Below, one piece after another: positions 13,732 through 58,286 of a DNA stretch of 64,000 nt. The stretch is taken from contig CAZUVH010000001.1 of the NCBI GenBank assembly GCA_964623775.1, forward strand, positions 40,790 to 104,789, given 5' to 3'. How positions within the stretch are numbered: position 1 is the stretch's first letter; the number at the start of each line of letters is the position of its first letter. The position numbers and the translations under genes were made by a program. This DNA comes from an uncultured Candidatus Saccharibacteria bacterium. GTDB lineage: Bacteria; Patescibacteriota; Minisyncoccia; Phycocordibacterales; UBA2100. The notes beneath the pieces are model-generated. The model made no database searches. It saw nothing but the letters and a program-made list of their open reading frames with translations, and was not told the origin of the DNA.

Positions 13732-13742
13732 GACGGACCTCC

Positions 13743-39391: not shown

Positions 39392-39435
39392 GTATACCCC
39401 GCACCACTTTTCAAAAAAAGTGGTGCGGGGTATAC
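39392..39435. promoter_or_regulatory. 20-bp inverted repeat GTATACCCCGCACCACTTTT-caaa-AAAAGTGGTGCGGGGTATAC, with TATACT -10 inside the right arm
   Basis: Perfect palindrome. The right arm ends 8 nt before the ATG of the DksA/TraR-like gene. The same arms recur at 56923-56942 and 57015-57033. Confidence 0.55.
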
Positions 39436-39443
39436 TGCACGTC

Positions 39444-39818
39444 ATGAAAAAACTCAGCCAAGTAGAAATCGACGAGCTGCGCGAAGCGCTCGAAATTGAA
39501 GAATCGAATCTTGTAGAAGAATTGGCATCGCATGGTCGCGTACAAAATGAGACCGGCGACTGGCAGGGGAATTCAAGCGGTCTCGAGGGCGAAGAAGCGG
39601 ACCCAAATGACGCTGCTGATCAGATCGAGGAACTCGTCACCAATATTCCACTCGTCGAAGAGCTTGAAGCCCGCCACAACGACGTGGAGGAAGCGCTCGA
39701 GAGAATGGATCAGGGAATCTACGGCATCTGCGAAGAATGTGGCGAACAGATCAAGCTCGATCGCCTCAAGGCCAATCCCGCCGCACGCACCTGCGTCGAA
39801 CACGCGGAGGAAGAGTAA
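39444..39818 (+). CDS. DksA/TraR-family C4 zinc-finger protein
   Basis: C-terminal CEECGEQI...C...C zinc finger and the acidic coiled-coil region typical of the DksA/TraR family. ~124 aa from the MKKLSQ start. Confidence 0.7.
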   Translation: MKKLSQVEIDELREALEIEESNLVEELASHGRVQNETGDWQGNSSGLEGEEADPNDAADQIEELVTNIPLVEELEARHNDVEEALERMDQGIYGICEECGEQIKLDRLKANPAARTCVEHAEEE

Positions 39819-39861
39819 ATTCTATTTGCTCAAGCGGAAAGAGGGAACGGCCTGATTTTTA

Positions 39862-40401
39862 TCAGGCCGTTTTAAAAAGTACTCGCTTCGTTTCTTTTGC
39901 AATCGTTTCGCTCACCTGTTTGTTGTGCACAATGTCGGTTAGGTGATTTGAGTGCAGTTTGATGTGCTCCAGAGCCTGCGGATGCTCTGCCCCCCACCAC
40001 ACGAGTTCATCATACTTGGCAGCAAACGATACGATCGGCACATCGGCACTGAGGGCTCGTGAGTTCAAACTTTGCGTAAAAACTCCACCCCAAGATCGGT
40101 GCGGCGAAAAGATCGTAGCTATTCCACATACCGGTGACCTCTTGAACGAAGGCGAACTCGCACAAGCGATGACGCCGCCCATACTATGTCCGACGAGAAG
40201 CAGTCTCTCTCCATCGTCATGTTTTGCGACCACTTCAGCTGTAAATGAACGCAGTCGTTCAATTTCCCACGGGTGACAAAAATATTCTTCCTCGACCGAA
40301 AATTGGGCCGACGGAAAGACGTCCAGAAACGCCGCCCCCAGATTTTTCCATGGATTTTTGTTTTCGTTTGACCACACGCCACTTATGCCGACGATGCGCA
40401 T
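39862..40401 (-). CDS. alpha/beta-hydrolase fold esterase/lipase-like protein
   Basis: Nucleophile elbow GHSMGG. Length 179 aa. Confidence 0.65.
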   Translation of the reverse strand: MRIVGISGVWSNENKNPWKNLGAAFLDVFPSAQFSVEEEYFCHPWEIERLRSFTAEVVAKHDDGERLLLVGHSMGGVIACASSPSFKRSPVCGIATIFSPHRSWGGVFTQSLNSRALSADVPIVSFAAKYDELVWWGAEHPQALEHIKLHSNHLTDIVHNKQVSETIAKETKRVLFKTA

Positions 40402-40488
40402 TCGCGCCTCCCGGTTTGAGTTCCTAATCTGGTATTACCGCCAATCAGTGAGCGGGTCAAGGCGAATCAGTTCGTCAATATTGCGCAC

Positions 40489-42096
40489 GTGTACATACCC
40501 GCCTACAATGTCCCCACTATGGGGTCAAAGCAGGCGATCGCTTCCGGTTTTGCTCGTGTCTTTGGCGCACAACCGATGCTGCCGAAAGCCACAATCGTCT
40601 CGATCGAGTGCGACATTGTAAAAGGACTGCACGCATTCACGATCGTGGGACTACCTGACAAATCGGTGGAAGAAGCAAAAGATCGCATCGCTGCTGCGAT
40701 CAAAAACACCGAGCCACCAGTCCCGACAGGACGCGAAGAGAACGGCTATGAATCTCCAAAGCGCAGTAATAAAAAGATCGTGCTCTCACTCGCGCCCGCC
40801 GAGCTCAAGAAAGAGGGTGCGGCTTTTGATATTCCACTCGCACTTGCGTTTTTACTTGCATCCAAGCAAGTCAAATTCGATCCCAAGGGAAAAATATTTG
40901 CCGGGGAGCTCGCGCTCGATGGCAGCGTACGAAAAATCCTCGGCACGCTTTCCATTACAGCTGCAGCACGTGACGCAGGTTACACAGACGTCTACATACC
41001 GGCAGAAAATGCCGAGGAGGCGTCGCTCATTACGGGATTGCGAATACATCCGGTCGTTTCACTTCAGGGGCTTGTCGAAGAACTCTCCGGTGACACACTC
41101 ACTGAATACGTACCGAGAATGAAGGATGTTTCATACGAGAGTGCCGACGCCGCACTCGATGAGATCCGCGGGCAAGAGAGCGCGAAGCGCGGTCTCATCA
41201 TCGCCGCAGCGGGCGGTCACAATATCGCGCTTTATGGACCGCCAGGCACTGGCAAGACGCTGCTCGCACGCGCAGCCACCTCCATTCTTCCAGATCTTTC
41301 AGAGGATGAGATAGTCGAAGTAACGACCATTCATTCGCTTGCAGGTGTGTTACACGGCGGCCCGATGTTTCGTCCACCGTTTCGCTCGCCACATCACACA
41401 TCATCATACGCGTCGCTTATAGGTGGCGGTTCATCGACAATCCGTCCTGGCGAGGCAACACTCGCCCACAGGGGAGTGCTCTTCGCCGATGAATTTCCTG
41501 AGTTTCACCGTGATGTGATCAACGCACTGCGCGAACCGCTCGAAGATCGCGTTGTCTCGATTTCACGCGCGAAAGGTTCTGCAATATTTCCCGCGAATTT
41601 TATGCTCATCGCCGCACTCAATCCGTGTCCGTGCGGATTTGCCGGCACCTCGCAATGCCAGTGCATGCCGCACTCTATAGAAAAATATCGCCGCAAAATT
41701 TCCGGACCAATCGCGGATCGCATCGATATGTGGGTGTCGGTCGGACATTTGCCGATCGAGACGCTCTCGACACAACAAAAAGCGGTGAGTGGAGAAACGG
41801 CGCGCGCACGAAGGTCAGTCGCTGATGCGCGCAAACGACAAAGGGAGCGATTCAAGGGTGCACGCGGCATGTCGACCAACGCCGACATGGGACCCAAAGA
41901 AATCGAGTCGCACGCAAACCTCTCTCCGAAAGCTGAGGAGACGCTTGTGGGCGCAGCAAAATCCCTGAAGCTCTCCCCGCGTGGCTACCACCGCACCATC
42001 AAGCTCGCACGCACCATTGCCGATCTCGCCAGTAGCGACACGATCGAGCCTTCACACATGCTCGAAGCTCTACAATATCGCGCACGTGAAATATAA
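40489..42096 (+). CDS. comM: Mg-chelatase-like AAA+ protein ComM/YifB family
   Basis: Lon-like N-domain, Walker A GPPGTGKT and the ChlI-type C-domain. The start could be an internal Met at 40519 or 40576. Confidence 0.85.
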   Translation: MYIPAYNVPTMGSKQAIASGFARVFGAQPMLPKATIVSIECDIVKGLHAFTIVGLPDKSVEEAKDRIAAAIKNTEPPVPTGREENGYESPKRSNKKIVLSLAPAELKKEGAAFDIPLALAFLLASKQVKFDPKGKIFAGELALDGSVRKILGTLSITAAARDAGYTDVYIPAENAEEASLITGLRIHPVVSLQGLVEELSGDTLTEYVPRMKDVSYESADAALDEIRGQESAKRGLIIAAAGGHNIALYGPPGTGKTLLARAATSILPDLSEDEIVEVTTIHSLAGVLHGGPMFRPPFRSPHHTSSYASLIGGGSSTIRPGEATLAHRGVLFADEFPEFHRDVINALREPLEDRVVSISRAKGSAIFPANFMLIAALNPCPCGFAGTSQCQCMPHSIEKYRRKISGPIADRIDMWVSVGHLPIETLSTQQKAVSGETARARRSVADARKRQRERFKGARGMSTNADMGPKEIESHANLSPKAEETLVGAAKSLKLSPRGYHRTIKLARTIADLASSDTIEPSHMLEALQYRAREI

Positions 42097-42108
42097 AGAA
42101 AACCCCGG

Positions 42109-42522
42109 TCATTGACCGGGGTTTTGATTTATGTAGTCAGAGAACATCTGAAAGTGATCGGCGATGAACTCTCCGCTTCGCGATTCGATTTCGGCTCGCG
42201 AGAGGAGAAGTACGCGCGTCTTGCCGGCTTCAGATTTCGGCTTGCCGGTCGCGATACCGCGAAACGCGACGGAGATATACGGGCCGCGAGGATCACGCCC
42301 CGCCGCGTCATACAGCCCGACACTACCTTCGATGAAAAATGAAAGGCCAGTTTCTTCGGCGACCTCTCTCATCACGGCTGCCTCGGAACTCTCTCCCGGC
42401 TCGATCTTGCCGCCGGGGAAGGCGAGACCATACGGCTCCGTCAGGCGCTCAGTGACGACAAACTTGTCGTCAAGCCTCGCCAGGGCGTCCACACAGCGGA
42501 TCGGAATGACACTGTGGCTCAT
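42109..42522 (-). CDS. Nudix hydrolase
   Basis: Nudix box GGKIEPGESSEAAVMREVAEETGL. Confidence 0.75.
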   Translation of the reverse strand: MSHSVIPIRCVDALARLDDKFVVTERLTEPYGLAFPGGKIEPGESSEAAVMREVAEETGLSFFIEGSVGLYDAAGRDPRGPYISVAFRGIATGKPKSEAGKTRVLLLSRAEIESRSGEFIADHFQMFSDYINQNPGQ

Positions 42523-42526
42523 GGGA

Positions 42527-43051
42527 TTACTCCTTTTCCCCGTAGGTCACGAGCGACTGGATCGCCCGCGCACCGAGCTTACCCTTCCCGCCGAGGCCGT
42601 CAAGCTCGATGACGAATGCACATCCCGCGACCGTGGCACCCACCGATTCAATGAGAGCACACGCCGCAGCGGCAGTACCGCCAGTGGCCAAGAGGTCGTC
42701 AACCAAGAGCACCTTCATACCGGCATTCACCGCATCTTTCTTGATCTCGATGGTGTCCTCTCCGTACTCCAGCGAGTAGGTCATCTTGACTGTTTCACCG
42801 GGCAACTTGCCCTTCTTACGCACCATCACGAATGGCACACCGAGTGCGAGAGCGATGGGAGCGCCGAAGACAAAGCCACGGGCGTCGAGCGCCGCGACCA
42901 TATCAACTTTTCCCTTCCACTCATCAGTGACCTTCTTCACGACCCATACAAACACCTCAGGGTTCGCAAGAAGCGGCGTGATATCACGGAACATGATCCC
43001 TTTCTTCGGGAAGTCCGGCACATTTCCGATGACTGATTTGAGATTCATCAT
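42527..43051 (-). CDS. apt: adenine phosphoribosyltransferase
   Basis: PRPP-binding motif VLLVDDLLATGGTA. 174 aa. Confidence 0.9.
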   Translation of the reverse strand: MMNLKSVIGNVPDFPKKGIMFRDITPLLANPEVFVWVVKKVTDEWKGKVDMVAALDARGFVFGAPIALALGVPFVMVRKKGKLPGETVKMTYSLEYGEDTIEIKKDAVNAGMKVLLVDDLLATGGTAAAACALIESVGATVAGCAFVIELDGLGGKGKLGARAIQSLVTYGEKE

Positions 43052-43118
43052 ATCCTCCTGTCAAAGAACTTTTGTATTGTGGAGTACATGTATGAAAAAT
43101 GTTGTCGTGACAGATAGT

Positions 43119-43138
43119 ATGTACTAAATAAAGTACAT
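43119..43138. promoter_or_regulatory. palindromic 20-mer ATGTACTAAATAAAGTACAT (copy 1)
   Basis: Identical to the copy at 43745-43764. Sits ~68 nt upstream of the apt start. Confidence 0.5.
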
Positions 43139-43181
43139 ATGTGTATAAAAAAACCGCGGCCAGATGGCCGCGGCGAAGACG

Positions 43182-43469
43182 CTAGATACTGTGATCGGTC
43201 CCATCGAATACTGCCTGCTTCTTACTCACCTTGCCCCAGACGGAATCGGGCACGTTTTTGACCGCAGAATACGCCCCGCACTGCGGACACAAGATACCTG
43301 GATACTTATGGGCGAAATGCGTTCCGTACCACAGCATCGGCACAAGATCATCGGTTTCGACTTCCAGTTCGGCACCACAGCCCTTACTCTTCATTGATTT
43401 GATGCCCTTGCACTCCACCTTGGTCTTCCAATTCTTGCCGACGTTGCCGTCCTTTAACACCTTAACCAT
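43182..43469 (-). CDS. small zinc-ribbon protein (CxxxxxxxxxC ... CPQC)
   Basis: AGGAGG ribosome-binding site before MVKVLKDG. Four Cys in two pairs. The track ORF starts slightly upstream. Confidence 0.45.
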   Translation of the reverse strand: MVKVLKDGNVGKNWKTKVECKGIKSMKSKGCGAELEVETDDLVPMLWYGTHFAHKYPGILCPQCGAYSAVKNVPDSVWGKVSKKQAVFDGTDHSI

Positions 43470-43477
43470 GCTTCCTC

Positions 43478-43669
43478 CTACCAACTACTGATCGTGATGT
43501 CCTTCTTGCAAGTCGGGCACACCACATATTCACCGCCACACGAACCGCCCATGTCCCGTCCAGACCAACTCTTGAGGTCGTTGGGCACATAGGCGATCGT
43601 GGTGCCACAACCCTTGCAGGTTACCTTCTTCTCGACTTCCTTCGAGGGCTTCGTGCTGATGATCCGCAT
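43478..43669 (-). CDS. small zinc-ribbon protein (CKGC ... CPTC), paralog of the downstream gene
   Basis: GGAGAA ribosome-binding site. 63 aa. VTCKGCGTT... resembles VECKG..GCGAE of its neighbour. Confidence 0.45.
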   Translation of the reverse strand: MRIISTKPSKEVEKKVTCKGCGTTIAYVPNDLKSWSGRDMGGSCGGEYVVCPTCKKDITISSW

Positions 43670-43744
43670 GATGGTTCTCCTTTTTTCAAAGAACTACTTG
43701 TAGGATACCGGGAGGGGGCGAGAAAGTCGTCGATGGTTGTAAAA

Positions 43745-43764
43745 ATGTACTAAATAAAGTACAT
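43745..43764. promoter_or_regulatory. palindromic 20-mer ATGTACTAAATAAAGTACAT (copy 2)
   Basis: 8 nt upstream of the TrmB paralog 3 start, in the divergent promoter region shared with the zinc-ribbon gene pair. Confidence 0.5.
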
Positions 43765-43771
43765 TCAGGAC

Positions 43772-44482
43772 ATGAATCTCCGTGAGACTTTCACACGACT
43801 TGGGCTGCCAAAACACAGCGACGAGATTTTTTCGACTCTGGAGAAAAGCGGACCGTCATCGGTGAGTGCACTCAAAAACGCGACCGGCGTGCATCGCCCC
43901 GCCATCTACCGTTCACTCAAGGCGCTTTTAAAGAGAAGGCTTGTTTCCGAAAAAACGTTTGGCAAGCGAATCTACTACGTGGCTGAATCCCGTGCGCATA
44001 TAACAAAAATCTTTGTGCACACAGCCGAAGAGGTGACACGTCTTGAAAGTGGTGCACCAAAAAATAGTGCGGGGGCAGTCAGATACTTCGAAGGGGAGAG
44101 TGCCGTCACCGCGCTTTTCAATGACCTCGTTGAGCACAGCAGGCGCGGCGACACCTTTTACCGATATACGTCGGAAAAAAACCTCGATCAGGTGAATCGG
44201 CTTTTGCCTTCCGATTACCGCAAGCGTCGAGACGCAAAGAGGCTCGAGCGCCTTGTGATCAGTAATCCCGAGTCGGGCAAGCGCAAACAAAACAGGCTCG
44301 AGCGTTTTATAAAATTCCTCGGCTCAGAAAAAGAATCGTTCCATCAAAACGCAATCCAGCTCATCTACGGAGATCGCCTCGCGTTTATTGATCTCAATAC
44401 ATTCAAAGGCTTCATTATAGAAAACAAAACCCTCGCCGAATTCCAAAAAACGATCTTCCGAGCGCTCTACAAGCGTCTTTAG
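43772..44482 (+). CDS. TrmB-like HTH transcriptional regulator (paralog 3)
   Basis: N-terminal wHTH LGLPKHSDEIFSTLEKSGPSSVSALKNATGVHRPAIYRSLKALLKRRLV, with a C-domain collinear with the other two paralogs. Confidence 0.65.
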   Translation: MNLRETFTRLGLPKHSDEIFSTLEKSGPSSVSALKNATGVHRPAIYRSLKALLKRRLVSEKTFGKRIYYVAESRAHITKIFVHTAEEVTRLESGAPKNSAGAVRYFEGESAVTALFNDLVEHSRRGDTFYRYTSEKNLDQVNRLLPSDYRKRRDAKRLERLVISNPESGKRKQNRLERFIKFLGSEKESFHQNAIQLIYGDRLAFIDLNTFKGFIIENKTLAEFQKTIFRALYKRL

Positions 44483-44483
44483 A

Positions 44484-44783
44484 CTACACCTCGGTCTTTG
44501 CGAGCTGCCTAACGACTTCCGAGGGAGAGGCCCCGATGATCTTCGCCTTCATAATGCGATGATTGTGGAGTCCCCAGAAGAAGATAAAGACGGCCGTCGC
44601 GAGTGAAAGGGGCCCGAAGATCATTGCTTCAAATGGCGTGGCGAATTTGAATATAACGATTGCGGCACCGATGAGACCCAGTGACGTGCGCACATAGGAG
44701 AGGAGAGTGCTTTCATTGGCGAGAAGTGTACGATCACGTGCCATCTCTAATTGATCGTATGTTTCACTGTGATACTCGAACAT
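44484..44783 (-). CDS. DUF202 (YidH-like) small membrane protein
   Basis: RDRTLLANESTLLSYVRTSLGL signature followed by two TM helices. Confidence 0.55.
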   Translation of the reverse strand: MFEYHSETYDQLEMARDRTLLANESTLLSYVRTSLGLIGAAIVIFKFATPFEAMIFGPLSLATAVFIFFWGLHNHRIMKAKIIGASPSEVVRQLAKTEV

Positions 44784-44885
44784 ACTAAAAGTATACGCCT
44801 ATTGCTACTATACTTTTTACTATGCTCCCGGAAAGGGGATAACGCAAGAGAAAAGGCCAGTCCGTCGCCGGATTGGCCTTTAAAA

Positions 44886-45875
44886 TCATTCCTTCGGAGA
44901 AACACAATCTTCGGGGCGCTTATCTCCCCGGTCGCGTACGCGCAGGATGTGCGCGCCGATTAGACGCTTGTTCGGCGTCCGTCGCTCAAACTCGACCTCG
45001 ACGACGTAATGGTACGTTCTACTCATGAGATCCCGCCTCTCATCTGTACTGAGACCAGTACCAACCTTGCCCCAAGAGACGAGTTCCCCCGTCGCGGGAT
45101 CATACTGTGCGATATTCAGATCTTCGATGAGACCGTAATGTGTCGGTGCCGTCGATGGGTTCCAACCCGTAACCACGAAGTCATCTTCATCGTAGTCCTT
45201 CCACTTCCATGACCCCTTGTCGCGGGGAATGTTCCCACCGTCGGTTCGGTAGGAAGAGCCCGTATGCTTGTCGTAGAGAACGAGGCCTTCCCATTTACTG
45301 GAGATGCTCAGGGCTTTTGCTTCTTCGAACGTCATGTTAAGCGGTTTGACGACGCTCACATTCGGTCGATCGCACTTCACCAGCATTTCTTGGAGAATCT
45401 CGAGTCGGTCGATATACGGCAGCCCGATAACCGACTTCCCCTTATATACGGCGATATTGAAGAACGAAAGATGTACCGGGGCATACTCTTTCTGTAGCGC
45501 AATCGCCCTTTCCGGATTCGACAGAGAAAGTCGGCCAAACGTGGTCGGGTTTTGAACACCATCCACGAGTAGGGTCATTTCTCCCAAAGGCATCGTGTCA
45601 TGAGGGATATTCATCGACAGTAACGTGTCGGTGATGCTCGGAAACTTTTCAGTCCACTCCTGAATACCGCGTGAATAAATACCCACATGCCGCTTGCGCA
45701 GACCAGTCACAGGCGTGAAGACGCCGTGACCGTTCTCTTTGCGCTCGATCAAAATATTACCGCCAGCCTCGAGCTCATGAATCTTCTTGAGACTTGGAGT
45801 TTTCTTGATGGGCTTCGCAGCAACGAAATTCGGCTCGAGCGGACGAAGAGAGAATAAGGATGTGCTCCCGTGCAC
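44886..45875 (-). CDS. ATP-dependent polynucleotide ligase-like nucleotidyltransferase (DNA/RNA ligase superfamily)
   Basis: Motif III LLVDGV, motif IV EGLVLY and motif V KGSWKWK are at ligase-like spacing. Motif I reads ERKENGHG (KxNG rather than KxDGxR), so DNA versus RNA ligase is unresolved. Confidence 0.6.
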   Translation of the reverse strand: MHGSTSLFSLRPLEPNFVAAKPIKKTPSLKKIHELEAGGNILIERKENGHGVFTPVTGLRKRHVGIYSRGIQEWTEKFPSITDTLLSMNIPHDTMPLGEMTLLVDGVQNPTTFGRLSLSNPERAIALQKEYAPVHLSFFNIAVYKGKSVIGLPYIDRLEILQEMLVKCDRPNVSVVKPLNMTFEEAKALSISSKWEGLVLYDKHTGSSYRTDGGNIPRDKGSWKWKDYDEDDFVVTGWNPSTAPTHYGLIEDLNIAQYDPATGELVSWGKVGTGLSTDERRDLMSRTYHYVVEVEFERRTPNKRLIGAHILRVRDRGDKRPEDCVSPKE

Positions 45876-46019
45876 GTATGTCTCCTATTTGATGACGAAA
45901 AGAACTACGTGGCGGAATAATGCCACAAAAAAGTTACCGGGTCAATTTAGAAGGGGAGAAACCCGCGGAGAGTGCGTATGAGTAATACAAAAGTATCAAA
46001 GTATCGTAAGTCCCACATT

Positions 46020-47314: not shown

Positions 47315-49207
47315 GTGAGTTACATAAATGGCTTAAATGAACGACAAAAAGAGGCTGTTCTCTTGACAGAGGGGCCTCTTTTGATCATAGCGGGTGCCGG
47401 GGCGGGAAAAACGAAAACAATAACACACCGTATTGCGCACCTTATGGCAAGGGGTATTCCTGCTCACCGCATTCTGGCCGTGACATTCACCAACAAGGCT
47501 GCGGGGGAGATGCGTGAGCGTGTCCGTGCACTGCTGGGGGGCCAGTCGGGAATGCCTCTCATCACAACATTCCATAGTTTGGGTGTACGAATCCTGCGCG
47601 AATTCCACCACCAGGCAAACCTGCCGCGCAACTTTTCGATCTGGGATCGCGACGACAGCATCAAGGCGATCAAGAGAATCCAGGGTGGGGCGGAGGAACA
47701 GGGTTACAAGGCGAGCGCGCTCATCTCCGCAATCTCAAGAGAGAAGGGAAACGGCACGTCGGCACGGGAATTTGAGGAAAATGCGAAGAATTTCCGCGAG
47801 AAAGAGCTCGCCCGCATCTGGCGTTCGTATGAAACGGCACTGAAAGAAGAGGGCGCCTTGGACTTTGATGACCTTCTTTTGCATACTGTGACGCTTCTCA
47901 AAGCATCTGAGGCGACCCTGGAGAAACTCCGCGAACGGTACGCTTACATTACGATCGATGAATACCAAGACACCAACAAGACTCAGTACGAGATCGCCCG
48001 TCTCCTTGCAGGGGAGCGCAAGAATATCTGCGTAGTCGGTGACATCGATCAAAACATCTACAGCTGGCGTGGTGCCGATATCGAACACCTTATGTCATTT
48101 GAGAAGTCATTCCCTGGAGCCGCGACCGTGCTTTTGGAGCAAAATTACCGCTCCACCCGCACCATTCTCGCGGCGGCAAACGGCGTCATTTCAAAAAATA
48201 TCCGCCGCAAAGAAAAAAATCTTTTTACCGAGAACGAAACGGGGGAGCCGATCGCGATCTATGGCGCACGCAACGAGATCGACGAAGCGTGGTTTGTCGC
48301 GGCAACAGCACAAAAAATGATCTCGAGTGGTATACCTGCGTCTCAAATCGCCGTACTTTACCGCGAAAATTTCCAATCGCGCGCGATTGAAGAAGCGCTT
48401 CTCCATCTGGAGGTGCCGTATCGCGTCCTTGGTACGCGCTTTTTCGAGCGCAAGGAGGTGAAAGACCTACTTTCGTACGTCCGCGCCGCTCTTAATCCGC
48501 TCAGTAAGGTGGATTTCGCACGCGCCGTCGCTACCCCTTCGCGCGGCATCGGGAAGACGACGCTTGAGAAGGTGTTTGCCGGCCAAGAGGCCGCGCTTCC
48601 TGCCGCTGCGCGCGCAAAGGTCGCGACCTTCAAAGATACCCTCACAAAGATCGCGCACGCGGCAAAGACACTGCCACCATCAGAGGCACTCCGATATACG
48701 CTCGAGGCGAGCGGCATCGAAGTGATGCTCAAGAAAGACGCCGAGGAGGGGAGCGAGCGCATGGAAAACTTGAACGAACTCCTCAATCTCGCGGTACGCT
48801 ACGACGAAATGCTCCCCCCGGAGGGTATCGAGAAAATGCTCGAGGAGGCCGCGCTCCAATCCGATCAGGACGAACTCGCCGAAAAAAGCGACGGCGTCGT
48901 GCTTCTGACAGTACACGCATCGAAAGGATTGGAATTCGACGTGGTCTTCGTGACCGGCCTTGAGCAAGGCCTTTTTCCCTCTCTTCGCGAAGGTACGCGC
49001 GACCCAGAGGAGGAACGTCGGCTTTTTTATGTGGCAATCACGCGTGCCCGAAAGCAGGTATATCTTTCATACGCGCACGATCGCATGCGGTGGGGATCAC
49101 GTGAGCTCACGACACCTTCGGAATTTTTCGACGACATCGACCCGCGACTTATCGTTTCCGTAAACCCCGGCGAGCAGAGTGAGGAGAGTACGATCGAATT
49201 TCTATGA
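47315..49207 (+). CDS. uvrD: ATP-dependent DNA helicase UvrD/PcrA family
   Basis: GTG start. Helicase motifs I (AGAGAGKT), II (DEYQDTN) and III-VI. 630 aa. Confidence 0.9.
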   Translation: MSYINGLNERQKEAVLLTEGPLLIIAGAGAGKTKTITHRIAHLMARGIPAHRILAVTFTNKAAGEMRERVRALLGGQSGMPLITTFHSLGVRILREFHHQANLPRNFSIWDRDDSIKAIKRIQGGAEEQGYKASALISAISREKGNGTSAREFEENAKNFREKELARIWRSYETALKEEGALDFDDLLLHTVTLLKASEATLEKLRERYAYITIDEYQDTNKTQYEIARLLAGERKNICVVGDIDQNIYSWRGADIEHLMSFEKSFPGAATVLLEQNYRSTRTILAAANGVISKNIRRKEKNLFTENETGEPIAIYGARNEIDEAWFVAATAQKMISSGIPASQIAVLYRENFQSRAIEEALLHLEVPYRVLGTRFFERKEVKDLLSYVRAALNPLSKVDFARAVATPSRGIGKTTLEKVFAGQEAALPAAARAKVATFKDTLTKIAHAAKTLPPSEALRYTLEASGIEVMLKKDAEEGSERMENLNELLNLAVRYDEMLPPEGIEKMLEEAALQSDQDELAEKSDGVVLLTVHASKGLEFDVVFVTGLEQGLFPSLREGTRDPEEERRLFYVAITRARKQVYLSYAHDRMRWGSRELTTPSEFFDDIDPRLIVSVNPGEQSEESTIEFL

Positions 49208-50004
49208 AGAAGAACCGGGGGGCACGCAAAGGAGCACGATTGGGTCAGCACTTTCTCACAGGCACCTGGGCTGCTGTGTCGCTTGTGAAAGCGACGGCGA
49301 TGAAGGAGGGTGATATCACGCTCGAGATCGGCCCCGGGAAAGGTGCGCTCACAAAGGAAATTCTCAAGACAGGTGCGCATGTCGTTGCGGTAGAGAAAGA
49401 CGAGGCGCTTGCCGATCTTCTTGCTGCGATATTTTCGAAAGAAATTTTTCACAAGCAGCTGGAAATTGTACGGGATGATGTGCGCAACTTTCTGCCGGAA
49501 AAAGCTGGTTTGCGAGCAGGGGAGTACATACTTGCGGCCAACATCCCGTATTACATCACCGGTGAGATCATACGGCAGTTTCTTTCGTGCAATGTGCAGC
49601 CACACACGATGGCAATCCTCATACAAAAAGAGGTCGCGGAGCGCATTCTCGCGCGTGATGGCAAAGAAAGCATCCTCTCGATCGCGGTCAAAGTGTATGG
49701 CACGCCAAAGATCGCAGCAAAAGTGTCGAGAGGAAATTTCAATCCGCCACCGTCTGTTGATTCCGCGATCCTGCTCGTGACGAATATTTCAAAAAAGTCA
49801 TTCGATGATGTGAGTGAAGAGATGTTTTTTAGAGTATTGCGTGCAGGTTTTTCGTCAAAAAGAAAGTTGCTCGCAAGTAATCTAGGTAATGTGTTTGGGA
49901 GGGAAAGGGTAGACACCGCACTTGAGAACTGCAAGATTCCGGGGAAGGCGCGGGCGGAGGATTTGAAGGTAGGGGATTGGTTGGGGTTGGCGACGAACCT
50001 TTAA
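49204..50004 (+). CDS. rsmA: 16S rRNA (adenine1518/1519-N6)-dimethyltransferase RsmA/KsgA
   Basis: LGQHFL motif and SAM-binding fold. ATGA start/stop overlap with uvrD. Confidence 0.9.
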   Translation: MKKNRGARKGARLGQHFLTGTWAAVSLVKATAMKEGDITLEIGPGKGALTKEILKTGAHVVAVEKDEALADLLAAIFSKEIFHKQLEIVRDDVRNFLPEKAGLRAGEYILAANIPYYITGEIIRQFLSCNVQPHTMAILIQKEVAERILARDGKESILSIAVKVYGTPKIAAKVSRGNFNPPPSVDSAILLVTNISKKSFDDVSEEMFFRVLRAGFSSKRKLLASNLGNVFGRERVDTALENCKIPGKARAEDLKVGDWLGLATNL

Positions 50005-50039
50005 CACAAGACTGCGGCCGTGCCCTTCGGGCGTCACAA

Positions 50040-50068
50040 ATATTTTGCCCGCCGTCGCGGGCAAAATT
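50040..50068 (+). terminator. intrinsic terminator ttttgcccgc-cgtc-gcgggcaaaa + T-run
   Basis: Perfect stem downstream of rsmA. Confidence 0.55.
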
Positions 50069-50185
50069 TTCTGACCACGGCTCGCCGGCGCAGCCCATGG
50101 ACTGTTTTTATCTCAGGCACGGATCAAATTTTGCCGTCCCCACGCCTCGCGGTCGCGCAAGCTTGCGCGACATCGCTCCGGCCGT

Positions 50186-50240
50186 CCAGTAGGAGAAAAA
50201 AGGGTGCGCAGGCACCCTTTTTCTACCTACTGGACCCCAT
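50186..50240. terminator. long nested hairpin gtccagtaggagaaaaaagggtgc-gcag-gcaccctttttctacctactggac
   Basis: ~24-bp stem between rsmA (+) and the minus-strand gene ending at 50223. Likely a bidirectional terminator. A second 20-bp perfect palindrome, GTCGCGCAAGCTTGCGCGAC, lies at ~50148-50168. Confidence 0.5.
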
Positions 50241-50567
50241 CATCGTAATCAAGATTCCGGGCCAAACGATAACTGGTTCGATAGAGACCACGCAGTAGTA
50301 GGGAGGACCGGCGAGACCAAGGTGCCACTGGCCTGCATGCGACGGCGGACCGAATTGATACGTGCGAGTAGAAGGCGTCCAGATGAAATCGCCTCCGCGT
50401 GGCGGGCCGGTGCGTGCAAAGATCGCACTGTTGTAACAAAAGATGATTTGAGAAATCTGTCCGCCGTACGGAAATGCCGAGGTGAATGTGGGGACGACGA
50501 GCGCAAGTATTATGAGGATCGCGGCAAACATGAGAATGAGTCGTATCACAGACAATTTCATGTGCAT
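50223..50567 (-). CDS. hypothetical membrane/secreted protein (114 aa)
   Basis: N-terminal hydrophobic helix MKLSVIRLILMFAAILIILALVVP. Divergent from the T4SS-like cluster. Confidence 0.4.
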   Translation of the reverse strand: MHMKLSVIRLILMFAAILIILALVVPTFTSAFPYGGQISQIIFCYNSAIFARTGPPRGGDFIWTPSTRTYQFGPPSHAGQWHLGLAGPPYYCVVSIEPVIVWPGILITMMGSSR

Positions 50568-50606
50568 AGCAAAATTCTACCATGTATTCAGTGGTACAAT
50601 TTTTGA

Positions 50607-51575: not shown

Positions 51576-51704
51576 CATCACGTATGACGCGCCCTGCCCC
51601 AACGCCAACGCTGGCATTTTCTTGCTGCGCCTTTAAGACTCAAAGTGAAATACACGAGTGACGTTGTGTGACTTTCTATCCCCGAAAACACCAGATATGC
51701 AGCC

Positions 51705-52544
51705 ATGCCAACGTTGGTGAGGGGGTATAATTCTAGTGTGGAAAAAGAACGCTCACACGAAAGCGGTTTTTCGGTTATTGAGGTCACTGCGATCCTTGCC
51801 GTTCTCGTCTTGATCGGATCAGCACTCTGGCAATCGCAGGCAAAAATCGATACGCAGAAAAAAAATCTCACCTACGAACAGCAGTCTGCCCCCGAATCTA
51901 CGGACTCGCTCGAAGACGACCCGCTCGCGCAAGCACTTGCCGATGTCACCGCAGCAGGGAAGCCCGGCACGATCGGCACCGCTGTCATGAATCAGATGTT
52001 GAACTCCTACCTCGTCTCCAAAAACAACGGTACGTATTCGCCCGAATATGCTGCGGCACTCGGGAGCTCACTCGCACCGATGATTCAAAACACGCTCGCG
52101 TACCAGACCTTTTCCGAGAAAAATCTCGTGATCAATCCAGACACATCGGAGAAAGCGTCCGTTGCATACCAGAAGGCGCTGTATGACGCGCTCGCGCCAC
52201 TGCGCACCAACACCGCGCCCGAGTTTGAGTTTTTCGCTCTCTACGTGCAGACGAAAGACCCCGTACATCTCGTGCGCCTACAAAGCGTGGCAACACTCTA
52301 TCGAGACGCGGTCGCCAATGCGGCTGTCCTTTTCGTGCCGTCTGACGTAGCTCAGAGGCATGTGGCGATTCTCAATGCGATGGGGGAATTCGCTGCCGCA
52401 CTCGACGCGCTTGCCCTGCATGCTGATGATCCTATCGAATCCGTCGCGCTCTTGCGCGATTACAACGCGGGCGAACAGCACGTGCTCGCCGCATTCAACG
52501 CACTTCAGTCCTACTACGCCACCAAATATGCAAAACGCTCATAA
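51705..52544 (+). CDS. prepilin-type N-terminal cleavage/methylation-domain protein (pilin/pseudopilin-like)
   Basis: ...ERSHESG|FSVIEVTAILAVLVLIGSAL fits the class III signal (G|F-x-x-I-E-hydrophobic), followed by a 250-aa extracellular domain. Confidence 0.55.
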   Translation: MPTLVRGYNSSVEKERSHESGFSVIEVTAILAVLVLIGSALWQSQAKIDTQKKNLTYEQQSAPESTDSLEDDPLAQALADVTAAGKPGTIGTAVMNQMLNSYLVSKNNGTYSPEYAAALGSSLAPMIQNTLAYQTFSEKNLVINPDTSEKASVAYQKALYDALAPLRTNTAPEFEFFALYVQTKDPVHLVRLQSVATLYRDAVANAAVLFVPSDVAQRHVAILNAMGEFAAALDALALHADDPIESVALLRDYNAGEQHVLAAFNALQSYYATKYAKRS

Positions 52545-53997
52545 CATCACCCTGTATATTGTGGGCGCAGCGCTCGTGCTTTTACTGAGTGCGACGCATA
52601 GTGCATACGCACAGACAGTCCAGTATCCGAGCGGTATCACGACGTGCGAACGCACCGGCGCTGCGGGACTCAGCTCGTCGGTCGGCTCGTTCTCCCCGAT
52701 TGGCGGGCCATATGTGCCGGTCGTCGATTATGCCGTCGAGCTCAATTCAGCAACACTTGTCTACAAAGAATGCGTGCTGCGGCAACTCGTCGATCAGCAA
52801 AGAAAAGCGGCCGTTGCGCTCATCACGAAAGATACGTTGCAAAAATTCATGACACAGCGAAATGGCCGCCCGATGTTCCCGGGGTATCTCCAGGGCGAAG
52901 TCGTCGAGAGAGAGGACGCCGCGATGGCTCGCACACTCAGGAGTCCGTCGCTTGCGACGATCAACCCGGCTTATAAAAACCTGATCCTGGGTGCTATCGC
53001 GCTCGACTACCGCGTCGACACGCGCGCGTACAACAACACAGTTACCTGCCCGTACCAGGGCAACCTCGATACGATACATAAGGCGCGAGATTTTACGTTT
53101 GATGGATTGTGGATAGGGGTGGGCGATCCGCGATGCCGGCCACTCGACGTATACTACCCAGCTTCCGATATCGCACACAACGACGTCGCGCTCGATCAGC
53201 AAGAGATGGGGTATCGCCTTAACACAAGCAATGGCCTCTACGGTCTTGAAGCGATCGATGCAAACGGCAATCGCATCACGCTCACGCCCGGTATATTCAC
53301 GCGCGACGTCGCGAGCCAGGCACTCACATCTGGTTTCCGAATGCTCGAAAGTGCGGATGATGTCGGTGAAGTCGTCGACGCGCTTTTTGCGGCAATGGGC
53401 GATCAAGCTCTCACGAGTGCTCCCGGGGGTGGGACGAGCGGGCTTTCGGGTCTCGGCGGTGGACTCTCGGGCATGATGAATGGTTCCAACAATTACTTCA
53501 ATCAGGTGTTGCAAAGTCAGCTCGGGGGCTTGGGTGGCACGATCACGACCGGTATTCTCGCTACACTGCAAAATCTGCTCGCCAACGAGCAGCTCTACAA
53601 CCAGGTCGTGATCGCGGTAGGACAACTCATTCAAAAAGCGACGGACGATCTCAAAAAATACGAGGCGAAATGCTTCTCCGACACTACGCACTCTGAGCAG
53701 GTTATCAGCACGAATTTTGCTCCAATCGTCGTCGATATCGCCCCAAAAATCGCAAGCTCGACTGCCGCTGTTACTGGCTTGCAGGCACTCATTGCGCAGG
53801 TGAGCGGGCCGAATCCGCCGAGCAATGCGCAGATCACCGCGACGCTCACTTCGCTGGGATTGCACTCACAACAACAAACACAGGCAGAGCAGTCGCGCCT
53901 GCAGACACTCCAGGTCGATATCACACAATTTGTGCAAAATGTCGTTGCCGGCTGGCAAAACAGTGCATCCGTTCCCGTCGGGTGCGGACAACTATGA
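52526..53997 (+). CDS. secreted hypothetical protein with Gly-rich segment
   Basis: Signal peptide MQNAHNITLYIVGAALVLLLSATHSAYA. Internal Met start overlapping the previous gene's end. The track ORF start at 52360 is out of context. Confidence 0.45.
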
Positions 53998-56321
53998 TAT
54001 CCATGACTCACTCATCAAGAATAATTCGCGACGCGATCATCGGAGTCGTTCTTTTCATGAGCATCGCGCTCCCACTCCTCACACCCTCGTACGCTTCGGC
54101 GCAAGCGCCGAGTGGCGGCGCAGCAGCGAGTGTAAACACTCCGAATGCACGGCCGACCGTATGCGACGGCGGATTACTTTCGATGTCGTCTCTTGATCCG
54201 GTGTGCTGGTTCCGCAGAATCACCGCCGCACTCGGCGCATCCATCATACAAATCGCCATATGGGTCCTTACGGTCTCTGGCATGCTCTTCAATCTGCTCG
54301 TGGATCACACGATAATCAACTTTGGACAATTTCTATACGGTAGTGAAATGAAAAGCGCGATCGAGACGGCCTGGACCGCCTTCCGCGACATTTCCAATAT
54401 TGTGATCATCGGCATGTTCGTATTTATGGCGATCATGACAATCCTCGGCAGCATCGACTATGGGTATAAAAAGCTTGTCGCAAAAATCATCATCATCGCC
54501 GTTCTCATCAATTTCAGCCTGCTCTTTACGAAGATTATTATCGATTTCTCGAATTTTGCGGCACTGCAGTTTTACAACGCGGCCAGCCTCCAGGCGAGCC
54601 CCTCTTCTACGGGAGCTGCGACCGACCCAAATACGACACAGCAAAAAGGCATTTCCGGAGCGTTTCTCGACTACATGGGCGTCACCGGCATCGGCGACAG
54701 TTATTCCGCAGTGAGAAAAGTCGCTGAATCGAGCGATAGTGGAGGATTGGCGCTCCTTCATGCGATTATCGCGAGTATTTTTATACTTGCTGCAGCGATC
54801 GTACTCTTCTACGGATCGTTCCTGCTCGCCTCTCGTGCACTGCTTCTGATTTTCCTCCTCCTCACCTCATCCATTGCATTCGCCACATACTTGATACCGA
54901 TTGGGGTTGTGAATTCCACCTGGGGGTGGAAAAAGTGGTGGAGCTCACTTCTTCAAAGCGCCGTCTTCGCCCCGCTTCTCATGATATTTCTGTGGGTAAC
55001 GCTCGCGATTGGGAGGGCACTAAAGGATCAGGCGGGGACGCTCGGCGACCTCCTCACCAACCCAACAAAGGGGGCTAATTATGAGTCGCTCTTTGGCTAC
55101 ATTATAGTGCTCGGGCTTCTCTTCATCTCGTTCAAGATTTCATCAAGTTTTGCGGCCGGCATCGGCGGATTCAATTACGCCGCGATGATACCTGCGGGCC
55201 TCGCCGGGATCGGTGCTCGAGCTGCAGCCATGTCAACAAGATGGACTGTCGGGGCAGGAGGTAGATGGGCTGGTGAAAAACTACAGGCGCAGGCTCGCAA
55301 CACAAATCGTTCTGACTTGAGTAGATCTCTCTTTGATTTCGGCGCAAAACCATTCCAGGCTCTCGCTAAGAAAGACTTCAATCCTTTACGGAACGCGCTG
55401 GGTGGCCAGATGGCAAAGATGGCAGGCCTGAAGAAGGAGACACTCGGTGGTGAAAAGGTTGGCGGATTCGAGGGTACAGTTAAAAATTTCCAGAAGGCGC
55501 TCGGGGAACGAGCAAAGAACATGACTCCGACGAAGGAGGAGTTGGAAAAGCAGCTGGAAGCTCGTAAAGCTGCAACAACCACACTAAAACCTGAGGTTCC
55601 AAAACCATCGACGATGGCTCCGCCCGAGGACAAAAAGAAAGACACTGAGACGGTTCGCGCAGAAGAGCTCAAGGCGTACTTTGACAATAATCCGAAAGAA
55701 AAAGAGGTTCATGAAAAGGCGAAAGAAGAGGTGCACATCAGTAAGGAGGACATGGATGCATCCCGCCGCACAAATGCTGACGTGGTTGCGAAGTTGTCAC
55801 AAAGCATCAAGGGTCTCAAGGAACAGCAGGCTACTTTGCGTAGCAACAAAGCCGACACCGTGGCCATAGCCCGCGCTGATGAAATCCAGAAAAAAGTTTC
55901 GGAATCTAAAGTGGAATTGGGCAGAGCACTGAAAGAGCGGCGCGAACAAATTAGGGAGGCCACAAAAAAATCTCAGGTGGCGGATGAAAAACTAAGAGAG
56001 ATTGAGAAGAAGGCGGTGGACGCGATGCAAGATCGCGTGCGAACACAACAGGAGCAGAACGCGAGCATAAAGGAGAGTGACGTTAAGGAAAAGAATACCA
56101 CAGAGGCCATCGCACAGAGACTTGCCGATAAAAGTCTCACTGGCGTGCTACTGAAGTCGCTTGGGGTGTCGAGTAAATCCCTTTCTAGTGGCGCAGTAAA
56201 ACATCTGAAAGAGCAGGCGAAGAGGGAGCGAGCGAAACTAAATGCTGAGGAGCGTAAGAAACTTGACGACAAAGACAAGCCAAAGAGCGAGCCCCCAGCG
56301 CCTGCTGGCGATAAACACTAA
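53994..56321 (+). CDS. VirB6/TrbL-like polytopic membrane protein with long charged coiled-coil C-terminal tail
   Basis: ATGA overlap with the upstream gene. Signal/TM plus about 6-8 TM helices over ~450 aa, then ~300 aa rich in K/E. This architecture is common in T4SS VirB6/TrbL proteins. Confidence 0.45.
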   Translation: MISMTHSSRIIRDAIIGVVLFMSIALPLLTPSYASAQAPSGGAAASVNTPNARPTVCDGGLLSMSSLDPVCWFRRITAALGASIIQIAIWVLTVSGMLFNLLVDHTIINFGQFLYGSEMKSAIETAWTAFRDISNIVIIGMFVFMAIMTILGSIDYGYKKLVAKIIIIAVLINFSLLFTKIIIDFSNFAALQFYNAASLQASPSSTGAATDPNTTQQKGISGAFLDYMGVTGIGDSYSAVRKVAESSDSGGLALLHAIIASIFILAAAIVLFYGSFLLASRALLLIFLLLTSSIAFATYLIPIGVVNSTWGWKKWWSSLLQSAVFAPLLMIFLWVTLAIGRALKDQAGTLGDLLTNPTKGANYESLFGYIIVLGLLFISFKISSSFAAGIGGFNYAAMIPAGLAGIGARAAAMSTRWTVGAGGRWAGEKLQAQARNTNRSDLSRSLFDFGAKPFQALAKKDFNPLRNALGGQMAKMAGLKKETLGGEKVGGFEGTVKNFQKALGERAKNMTPTKEELEKQLEARKAATTTLKPEVPKPSTMAPPEDKKKDTETVRAEELKAYFDNNPKEKEVHEKAKEEVHISKEDMDASRRTNADVVAKLSQSIKGLKEQQATLRSNKADTVAIARADEIQKKVSESKVELGRALKERREQIREATKKSQVADEKLREIEKKAVDAMQDRVRTQQEQNASIKESDVKEKNTTEAIAQRLADKSLTGVLLKSLGVSSKSLSSGAVKHLKEQAKRERAKLNAEERKKLDDKDKPKSEPPAPAGDKH

Positions 56322-56325
56322 AACC

Positions 56326-56910
56326 ATGAACGATCAGATTGAAGAGAAAAAGTATGACGAGGTAATTCAGGAGAGACTCTCGCAACTGCCGAAAGTTGTC
56401 CAAGACGCTATACGCTCCGGTAATGTAACAGAACACATGCGTAAGCTTGCCGAGGCCCATAAACTACACTTGGATCAGTGGCAAACGCTTGAACAGGAGG
56501 TCCAGTTTACTTTACTCGGTTTTCAACCTGCTGAAGAGCTCGAACAAAATATTAAAAATGAAGTGGGGGTCTTGGACGAGGTTGCTCACGCGCTTACCCT
56601 TGATATCTCTCACACTGTGTTCGAGCCAATTCGCCAAGAGCTTGAGCGCACTCTCGGAAATCCCGAGGCGAAGAAAGTGGAGGTGAGTGACATGGAGGCG
56701 TCGCGAACACAGGCGATAGCGATCGAAAAAAAGTCGGCCACTCCAGAGGCTGCTGCAGCGCCCAAGACTGTCGCACCCGCCACGCCGCCTGCTCCCGCAC
56801 CTCAGGGCACCGCAAAGCGCGCACCGATTGCTGATACCTATCTCTCGAGCAGTCCGAGTCACGAGCGCAAAGTAATCGAGGGTGATCCGTACAGGGAGCA
56901 GACTTCTTGA
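56326..56910 (+). CDS. hypothetical soluble protein (~194 aa)
   Basis: Internal Met MNDQIEEKKYDEV directly after the previous stop. No family recognised. Confidence 0.4.
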   Translation: MNDQIEEKKYDEVIQERLSQLPKVVQDAIRSGNVTEHMRKLAEAHKLHLDQWQTLEQEVQFTLLGFQPAEELEQNIKNEVGVLDEVAHALTLDISHTVFEPIRQELERTLGNPEAKKVEVSDMEASRTQAIAIEKKSATPEAAAAPKTVAPATPPAPAPQGTAKRAPIADTYLSSSPSHERKVIEGDPYREQTS

Positions 56911-56922
56911 CGCCAACAAGGG

Positions 56923-57033
56923 GTATACCCCGCACCACTTTTAACACCCGGGCGATGGGCGACTAACTTCATTAAGTTTTGAGTGGCTAGTTATCAACGA
57001 ATTATAAAAGGTTTAAAAGTGGTGCGGGGTATA
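56923..57033. promoter_or_regulatory. inverted-repeat arms GTATACCCCGCACCACTTTT (56923-56942) and AAAAGTGGTGCGGGGTATA (57015-57033) separated by ~72 bp, with TATAAT inside the right arm
   Basis: Same 20-mer arms as at 39392-39435. The right arm ends 8 nt before the ATG at 57042, so the mRNA is essentially leaderless. Confidence 0.55.
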
Positions 57034-57041
57034 ATTACTGA

Positions 57042-57614
57042 ATGCAGTTTCAGGTTCCTCAATTCATCGAGGTGGAGGACAAGATCTTCGGCCCGCTCAC
57101 GTTTAAGCAGTTCATATATATAGGAGGGGGGATAGGGGCAGCTTACTTACTCTGGCGCGTCCTGCCGATGTACGTCGCGGCCCCCATCATTGCGGTAGTG
57201 GGTGGACTTGCCGCAGCGCTTGCGTTTTTCCAATACAACGGGCGTCCATTCATAATAGCGCTCGAAAACGCCTTCTTTTTCCTTGTTCGCAGCAAGCTCT
57301 ACCTCTGGAACAATGAAAACAAGAAAAAGTCACGAGAGGTGGTCGAGCAAAATTTTGCACAGGCGTCTAATCTATATGTTCCGAAACTCTCGGGCAGCAA
57401 GCTGCACGAACTCGCGTGGAGCCTCGACATCAAGGAGCGTATCGCCGGCGGTGTCGCCACAGAGTCCGAGCGCACAGGAAATCGGCCTCCCGAAGATATA
57501 TTGGCTCCCATAAAGACCGCGAGGGCAGCAGCAGCGACCAGAGAGCAATCACTTGCGCAGCAGATTGAGAGCTTGGCACGCCAGCGCGCCAATACTGCGC
57601 CGTCTACACAATAA
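57042..57614 (+). CDS. PrgI-family (VirB3-like) T4SS membrane protein
   Basis: MQFQVPQFIEVEDKIFGPLTFKQFIYIGGGIGAAYLLW matches the PrgI-family N-terminal signature (..VP..I...E.KIF..LT.RQ...), followed by a TM hairpin. Confidence 0.5.
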   Translation: MQFQVPQFIEVEDKIFGPLTFKQFIYIGGGIGAAYLLWRVLPMYVAAPIIAVVGGLAAALAFFQYNGRPFIIALENAFFFLVRSKLYLWNNENKKKSREVVEQNFAQASNLYVPKLSGSKLHELAWSLDIKERIAGGVATESERTGNRPPEDILAPIKTARAAAATREQSLAQQIESLARQRANTAPSTQ

Positions 57615-57616
57615 AT

Positions 57617-58285: not shown

Positions 58286-58286
58286 T

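Follow-up and report, generated by a model that had tools for sequence, protein, structure and literature searches.

Correia elements are 100–155 bp long, with 26-bp terminal inverted repeats (TIRs), a TA duplication, a conserved core that contains an integration host factor (IHF) site and promoters of their own, and they occur in one genus. The ends of piggyBac read CCC...GGG; IS1380 elements have 'CC' ends and duplicate 4–5 bp. The hairpins of Correia/NEMIS elements are sensitive to RNase III (PMC2649163, PMC10969869). piggyBac inserts only at TTAA, which is recognized unpaired, and excises seamlessly (PMC7351741); it is grouped with the bacterial IS1380-like elements (PMC5718144). [quoted passage not shown] The sequence considered here is a 20-mer repeated in front of a gene for a DksA/TraR-like protein and in front of prgI, in a type IV secretion system (T4SS)-like operon, within a 64,000-nucleotide stretch (the window) of an uncultured Candidatus Saccharibacteria bacterium (contig CAZUVH010000001.1). 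It is very probably the end of a small non-autonomous, MITE-like mobile element inserted at TATA.

The 20-mer GTATACCCCGCACCACTTTT was found by scanning the window at 39392–39411 (+), 39416–39435 (−) and 56923–56942 (+), with a fourth match at 57015–57034 (−) that has one mismatch, at the outermost base. No match was expected by chance, as estimated from 100 dinucleotide-preserving shuffles. The four arms of 19–20 nt form two inverted pairs, with the spacers of 4 and about 72 nt that were reported in the initial annotation. Site 1 (39392–39435) is a perfect 20+20 palindrome of 44 bp with a 4-nt loop (RNA fold of −37.5 kcal/mol, z = −10.5), which lies 30 nt beyond the stop codon of a co-directional gene. 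At site 2, the 20-mers are separated by 72 nt (56943–57014), and a long closing stem with internal hairpins is predicted (−48.1 kcal/mol, z = −5.6). The complete self-complementary sequence GGGGTATACCCC, initially ascribed to each arm, is present only at 56920–56931; at site 1 the left arm reads TGGTATACCCC instead, and of GGGGTATACCCC the right arms contain just the half GGGGTATA.

As initially annotated, both right arms end in a −10 hexamer close to a start codon. TATACT (39431–39436) lies 7 nt before the ATG at 39444 of the DksA-like gene, and TATAAT (57030–57035) lies 6 nt before the ATG at 57042 of prgI. The space between −10 and ATG is too small for a Shine-Dalgarno sequence at both sites. 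This geometry, a TATAnT 6–7 nt before a conserved ATG and kept in the orthologues, remains consistent with the leaderless transcripts that had been proposed. The two copies consist of the following segments.

39393–39396, no strand: left copy of the duplicated target TATA, copy 1; the empty site of the relative L052 has one TATA (gaatgGTATACtgcacgtcATG), the window two
39397–39411, + strand: left TIR CCCCGCACCACTTTT, copy 1; the arm is also present in loci of the Candidate Phyla Radiation (CPR)
39412–39415, no strand: interior or loop CAAA (4 nt), copy 1; the loop differs in every copy elsewhere
39416–39430, − strand: right TIR, reading AAAAGTGGTGCGGGG on the + strand, copy 1
39431–39436, + strand: right TATA (39431–39434) and CT, forming the native −10 TATACT of the DksA-like gene; kept in the empty sites of L052 and L054
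56924–56927, no strand: left copy of the duplicated target TATA, copy 2; in L056, L057 and L058 only one TATAAT is present, at 6 nt from the ATG
56928–56942, + strand: left TIR CCCCGCACCACTTTT, copy 2
56943–57014, no strand: 72-nt interior, copy 2; no open reading frame (ORF), no Rfam match, unrelated to the interiors of other lineages
57015–57029, − strand: right TIR, reading AAAAGTGGTGCGGGG on the + strand, copy 2
57030–57035, + strand: right TATA (57030–57033) and AT, forming the native −10 TATAAT of the prgI operon; kept in the element-free L056, L057 and L058

The dksA and prgI loci were compared with those of five distinct relatives, with 71–93% amino acid identity. At dksA, the window reads gaatgG TATA CCCCGCACCACTTTTCAAAAAAAGTGGTGCGGGG TATA CtgcacgtcATG, with a 34-bp element between the two TATAs, whereas L052 and L053 (86% identity) have a single TATA (gaatgGTATACtgcacgtcATG; longer stretch before the start codon, cagaatgGTATACtgcacgtcATG) and L054 (78%) is likewise empty (tttgaTATACTttgcgtcATG). 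At prgI, the window reads caaGGGG TATA (102-bp element) TATA ATtactgaATG, whereas the site is empty in L056 (80%, acGGGGTATAATtaagccATG), L057 (93%, cgggtTATAATtgggtaATG) and L058 (71%, ggctgTATAATtgagcgATG). The flanks of filled and empty sites agree on both sides and the edges are exactly bounded by TATA, so that at both loci the filled site equals the empty site plus an insert with CCCC...GGGG ends and a second TATA. Both the −10 hexamer and its spacing from the ATG belong to the host and are older than the insert; the element-free orthologues have them as well. The −10 had been taken as part of a shared cis element; its TATA is instead host sequence duplicated by the insertion. The arm was absent from about 50 kb of the window's close relatives that were scanned.

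A third locus, in another lineage, comprises divergent leaderless genes that share AGTATACT, and both versions of it were found. It is filled in L060–L064, from the species of the copy-rich genome (CATacgcggAG TATA (element) TATA CTatccacaatATG), and empty in L065 and L066 (76% identity, CATatcgcgAGTATACTactcgcATG), where the two start codons are 20 nt apart. In L067 and L068 (74%), the same TATA holds two tandem copies of a second subfamily, presented below, each bounded by TATA. If insertion occurs at TATA, a copy between divergent genes must derive from one shared palindromic −10, and L065 and L066 display such a site. The target-site duplication was thus observed at three independent loci, with one TATA when empty and TATA on both sides when filled. 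It follows from these matching flanks that the sequence is, very probably, a small non-autonomous mobile element. Of the features by which MITEs are recognized, the following are present: small non-coding units, TIRs, a target duplication seen in filled and empty sites, and dispersed copies that differ in presence or absence. Two additional comparisons were set aside: the N-termini of the window's trigger-factor-like gene and those of L038 and L041 are too diverged, and the sites for the second-subfamily copy of L060 are not clearly orthologous.

Differences between filled and empty sites could also result from loss. The hairpins would then be structural or RNA elements of ancestral origin (a terminator, an insulator or an RNase III site) that the relatives lost by precise slipped-strand deletion between the TATAs. 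A hairpin between short direct repeats is a classic substrate for deletion, the stability of the stems is very high, and site 1 lies 30 nt past the stop of a co-directional gene. Yet all five distinct relatives are element-free at dksA and prgI, identical ends are found in distant lineages at sites that are not orthologous, and a different subfamily occupies the same TATA in L067. Neither site has a U-tract after the stem on the sense strand, as examined with an intrinsic terminator test; the sole terminator match was on the minus strand of site 1, into which no gene reads. Loss in the relatives is considered very improbable.

The initial annotation had interpreted the repeat as a palindromic operator, dedicated to one circuit in which a regulator would control both the DksA/TraR-like gene and the T4SS-like operon. 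The same 19-mer does abut the −10 of both genes, and 18 nt that are conserved between lineages could point to a site bound by a protein. However, the element is absent from the orthologous promoters of every close relative checked and its edges are bounded by TATA; these empty sites largely refute the operator. In other CPR genomes the same arm precedes unrelated housekeeping genes, which is at odds with a dedicated cis element. The distance between arms varies from 4 to about 145 nt, unlike that of a dimer operator, and some copies have no adjoining gene or lie within pilin codons. Neither the conservation at orthologous promoters nor the fixed half-site spacing of a regulon site was found. 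Co-control through an operator is therefore given very little credence. The DksA-like gene and the prgI operon very probably share the repeat only because each promoter was hit independently. The initial annotation had also contrasted its operator with a dispersed repeat lacking promoter association. The 20-mer is indeed dispersed at unrelated sites, but it is still associated with promoters, because it is always found inserted at TATA. A false regulatory link is thereby removed, as the identity in front of the two operons reflects transposon insertion rather than co-regulation, and caution is warranted when regulons are deduced from motifs in metagenome-assembled genomes (MAGs).

The distribution of the family was examined with an exact search for the 18-mer AAAGTGGTGCGGGGTATA in a collection with one genome per species (596 Gb). 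Sixteen loci were found, 12 of them in records of Patescibacteria/CPR: eight are contigs of one MAG, a ninth belongs to a second MAG, and the others are in records named Kaiserbacteria, Wolfebacteria, Lloydbacteria and Falkowbacteria. With Saccharibacteria, the exact 18-mer occurs in at least five named CPR lineages, mostly in inverted pairs and at a GC content of 36–64%, the names being those of the records, with the CPR group confirmed for one of them; for the MAG titled Saccharibacteria, the closest homologues that bear a name are from Parcubacteria/Paceibacterota. The exact 18-mer forms an inverted pair in eight of the 12 CPR loci, and two more have a degenerate partner arm. The four matches outside CPR are single arms in unrelated contexts, a number that stays within the about 17 chance matches to an 18-mer that 596 Gb would give. 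A scan of metagenomes added 35 loci with a GC content of 35–64%. Counted on genome fragments, there are nine copies on the eight contigs of one MAG and two in the 64-kb window. Collections of plasmids, phages and viruses yielded chance matches only and nothing similar.

A copy consists of TATA, CCCCGCACCACTTTT, an interior of 4 to about 145 nt, AAAAGTGGTGCGGGG, and TATA. Both copies of the window have perfect 15-nt TIRs starting with CCCCG, and between the TATAs they measure 34 bp (copy 1) and 102 bp (copy 2), with no ORF and no Rfam match. Across the family, the 18-mer arms are 6–10 nt apart in tight copies and about 35–145 nt apart in wide ones. The arms of distinct CPR-type copies end in a near-invariant TATA, with the rare variants TAAA, TGTA and CATA. 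In several copies, such as that of L007 (C-TATA...TATA-T), the two TATAs are not followed outwards by matching bases, so the repeated unit is the 4-bp TATA rather than a hexamer, even though the target most often lies in the context GTATAC. The interiors of wide copies have no similarity between lineages. They are conserved within the metagenome Ga0163153, where a 113-bp form is multi-copy. The loops of tight copies all differ, even within one genome, possibly owing to deletion of interiors across the stem or to template switching in quasi-palindromes. Template switching would also keep the arms perfectly complementary, which would fit a copy in L012 (about 3010–3050) that has matching G>A and C>T changes in its two arms. 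Rfam searches of the window and the 16 loci returned tRNAs only.

The second subfamily has the TIRs CCCCGTGAGATA... and ...TATCTCATGGGG, a length of 57–95 bp and TATA boundaries. It was found at two places.

L067 9863–9989, also in L068: two tandem copies at the TATA of the holB promoter
L060 16388–16490 (= L005 825–927): separate copy 8 nt before an ATG

What the two subfamilies have in common is thus the hallmark TATA, CCCCG...CGGGG, TATA.

Some copies are arranged in more complex ways. In the Kaiserbacteria locus L011 (6361–6541), the intergenic region preceding ligA contains three arms: GGGTTTACT is the end of a wide copy, and 44 nt further on there is another perfect arm, which suggests nested or tandem insertions. 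In L035 (2605–5110, metagenome Ga0163153), and also in L017 (2441–2928), the element is located at GG/TATA/C in tandem type IV prepilin genes, where the insertion point corresponds to the codons G-Y-T at the leader cleavage site. One gene holds two nested copies. The element is read through in frame in the L035 prepilin, as MLSSKTIKREYCDGG-(36 aa)-G/YTIIE. Because cleavage removes the leader, the mature pilin would stay the same. Another possibility is that translation from an internal GTG gives an element-encoded leader, MKRESGAG.

The copies are mostly close to start codons. An ATG follows a TATA end by 8–14 nt in 20 of 26 distinct copies. Where the TATA and the two next bases make TATAnT, the ATG is 8–11 nt after the TATA; where the arm ends in TATACC or TATAGC, no gene adjoins. 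The genes behind the copies are unrelated and include those for a HolB-like protein, SmpB, LigA, a peptidyl-prolyl isomerase (PPIase), an SPFH protein and an ATP-grasp enzyme, among others. Copies were also found away from gene starts and inside the pilin coding sequence. The window contains 142 TATA tetramers, of which 57 do not fall within called ORFs and about ten are placed like a −10 in front of real genes, and 15 other GTATAC sites, mostly coding. At the holB site, the same promoter TATA was struck independently by two subfamilies. This distribution fits a targeting of promoter TATAs.

To describe the native promoters, 45 TAnnnT-N5-9-ATG candidates were collected from the window and the relatives. 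They contain no information at −35. The base 5' of the −10 is G in 23 of the 45 and T in one, and Shine-Dalgarno-like 4-mers are rare. Most genes in the window and in L052–L067 look leaderless, with a TAnnnT 5–9 nt before the ATG and a G-rich stretch 5' of the −10. Judged by this spacing, the leaderless architecture appears to be genome-wide and not special to the DksA-like and prgI genes. At site 1, a sigma-70 scan pairs TATACT with TTTTCA (39408–39413, from the T-run and loop of the element) at 17 bp; at site 2, the promoter scan found no −35-like hexamer. Insertion may be nearly neutral for promoter function, because the GGGG end mimics the native G-rich context and the duplicated TATA restores the −10. 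Since native promoters have no conserved −35, it is probably tolerable. Near neutrality would explain the presence of copies before the essential genes ligA, smpB and holB.

These observations show the element at a TATA, which is then found on both sides of it. In these gene-dense genomes, whose genes look leaderless, the occupied TATA is usually made up of the first four bases of a −10 (TATAnT) located 6–9 nt before the start codon. The gene-side TATA and two native bases rebuild the −10, so that its distance to the ATG does not change, and the G-rich end of the element takes the place of the DNA 5' of the −10. It is presumed that a transposase acting in trans recognizes the CCCCG termini and the TATA target. 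The closest analogy would be with cut-and-paste elements that have a fixed 4-bp target and excise seamlessly, such as piggyBac (TTAA) and IS1380-like elements. Insertions would persist at promoters because the native ones have no conserved −35 and prefer a G 5' of the −10. In addition, read-through from a co-directional upstream gene may be stopped or processed at the long stem.

Several points weigh against a cut-and-paste MITE. Neither the window nor about 75 kb of the loci richest in copies yielded an autonomous copy or a transposase gene, and a search for a transposase near the copies, with Pfam on 30 ORFs, returned housekeeping genes only, so that the enzyme class can only be inferred. 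Copies with 4–10 nt between arms leave too little room for a classical paired-end complex to form on double-stranded DNA, and must be deletion derivatives or have moved another way. Loop differences within one genome are not predicted by copying from one master. Ends of 15–19 nt that are identical across very divergent lineages are unusual for MITEs. As TATA is palindromic, a duplication of 4 bp looks the same as one of 2 or 0 bp, and the same as the overlap region of a recombinase. The enrichment at promoters could come from selection against coding insertions instead of targeting.

The element could therefore be mobile by a route other than DDE cut-and-paste. It might transpose as a single-stranded hairpin through an HUH/Y1 enzyme, as REP/RAYT or IS200/IS605-like systems do, or be moved by a tyrosine or serine recombinase acting on a GTGGTGCGGGG-TATA-CCCCGCACCAC core in which TATA would be the overlap region. 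The element in its entirety forms one hairpin, and arms 4–10 nt apart suit single-stranded substrates; for the tight copies, which are no more than a hairpin, a single-strand (HUH) or other route is the better fit. An invariant TATA is expected of a cleavage tetranucleotide or an overlap region, and the matched changes in both arms of the L012 copy are also in favor. However, a single arm is not an imperfect palindrome, in contrast to a REP or to the end of an IS200/605 element, and it lacks a GTAG-type head. Genes for RAYT, Y1 or a dedicated recombinase were not seen beside the copies, and a 38-bp double-stranded circle is physically implausible as a recombinase intermediate. Such a route is unlikely, and a non-autonomous element of the MITE type remains the preferred explanation.

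Other identities were considered and rejected. A sigma-54 promoter does not fit by inspection, given the GG/GC spacing and the distance to the start, and a T7/SP6-like promoter for a single-subunit RNA polymerase, ending in TATA, is refuted by the empty sites. No structure supports an origin from a tRNA 3'-end or an att-like site (CCCCGCACCA). GGTGCG is common to the element and Escherichia coli dif, but out of register with a dif/Xer site. An invertible promoter (inverton) does not fit, as the −10 is outside the repeats and tight copies cannot invert. The frame through the arm relative to the ATG is inconsistent between copies, contrary to peptide coding, and no pattern of target-flank copying into the loop was seen.

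The genes adjoining the two copies in the window are listed below. The identities initially given to them are confirmed: a PF01258 zinc finger at site 1, and at site 2 PrgI (PF12666) followed by a VirB4/TraG-type ATPase.

39444–39818, + strand: DksA/TraR-type zinc-finger gene, 124 aa, with leaderless geometry; adjoins the element and is not part of it (PF01258, E = 8.7e-11)
57042–60206, + strand: T4SS-like operon adjoining copy 2, outside the element (Pfam matches)
57042–57614, + strand: prgI (PF12666, E = 4.8e-11)
57617–58285, + strand: traC-like gene
58065–60206, + strand: virB4/traG-type ATPase ORF

The DksA-like protein has 478 homologues, mostly of 121–127 aa among the matches listed, and the homologues of both downstream genes have protein lengths equal to those of the window. 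The DksA-like gene lies within a conserved PNPase-X-DksA-ChlI synteny. It is a conserved chromosomal gene and not the traR of a tra operon, and the link initially drawn to tra operons is abandoned. The genes called at the orthologous T4SS loci include matches to PF26593 and PF19044.

Other repeats were also noticed in the window. An unrelated 30-bp palindrome, TCCGCCCnAGGCGGATCCGCCTTGGGCGGA, occurs at 31293–31322 and 36713–36742, in frame in two housekeeping genes; it adds SAQGGSASGG to an MgsA/RarA-like ATPase and about 7–9 residues (APGGSALGG...) to PNPase. As the orthologues of L052 and L054 are without it, it looks like an in-frame palindromic insertion of the kind known as Rickettsia palindromic elements (RPEs). 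A direct repeat of 37–39 nt (CTCTATCAAC.CACGA.CCATT....GCTGAATAAAG) is present four times (12095–12133, 12999–13035, 13481–13519 and 13742–13778), 260–900 nt apart among small ORFs without Pfam match. This arrangement is cassette-like and possibly corresponds to the cassette loci mentioned in the initial annotation. An inverted repeat with 24-bp arms and a 4-nt loop (GTCCAGTAGGAGAAAAAAGGGTGC / GCACCCTTTTTCTACCTACTGGAC) at 50184–50235, downstream of the ORF 49204–50004, may be a terminator or another palindromic element. Runs of GTATGGC / CCATACT-type heptamers, at 690–768 and 1994–2429, flank the ORF 771–1985 in inverted orientation.

The mobile elements of this family, which appears to be undescribed, are very small, and their hosts, the Patescibacteria, are usually portrayed as having streamlined genomes. 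A literature search of a limited collection, covering the sequence, CPR promoter and leaderless motifs and Patescibacteria MITEs, found no description of it. They sit in the −10 boxes of essential genes that appear to be leaderless, and leave the −10 in its place. The natural pairs of filled and empty promoters could be used to learn what upstream DNA a CPR promoter needs, and the elements could serve as markers of strain history. The 34-bp hairpin-only forms may indicate an unusual route of mobilization or palindrome formation. A bolder proposal, which is possible but doubtful at present, is that the family and its second subfamily represent an undescribed superfamily of prokaryotic transposons, whose transposase, possibly piggyBac/IS1380-like, would home to the easily unpaired TATA of the −10. 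As the duplication rebuilds the −10, it could cost such elements' streamlined CPR hosts little to have their essential promoters colonized. Co-option would then be conceivable, with the elements serving as portable upstream promoter, insulator or leader-peptide modules. A TATA-specific transposase would be a bacterial counterpart of the TTAA-specific piggyBac.

By analogy, the nearest bacterial counterpart of the element would be the Correia/NEMIS MITE. Both are small and non-coding, have TIRs, are multi-copy and mostly located just upstream of genes, have ends in −10 boxes and form long hairpins when transcribed (PMC2649163, PMC10969869). The present element differs in its TATA repeat, its CCCCG ends and its unconserved interior of down to 4 nt; it also uses the host −10, and the same ends are found in several CPR lineages. 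The likeness to RPEs is that of palindromic repeats tolerated in frame inside protein genes (PMC10969869), but RPEs are about 150 bp long and restricted to Rickettsia, whereas the present copies are mostly intergenic and at promoters. Repetitive extragenic palindromes (REPs) and REPINs are similarly short extragenic multi-copy palindromes, in which inverted pairs with a spacer make one long hairpin. However, their own features, a unit that is an imperfect palindrome, a GTAG head, species specificity and the lack of a flanking duplication, are not those of the present element: its single arm is not self-complementary beyond GGGGTATACCCC and has no GTAG, and no Y1 gene was found near the copies. 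Like the element, piggyBac and the IS1380-like elements have ends that begin with a run of C. With piggyBac, the element further shares a strict palindromic target tetranucleotide made of A and T only, an apparent 4-bp duplication and seamless empty sites (PMC7351741). The target is TATA instead of TTAA, and, with no transposase found, the analogy is drawn from the ends and the target.

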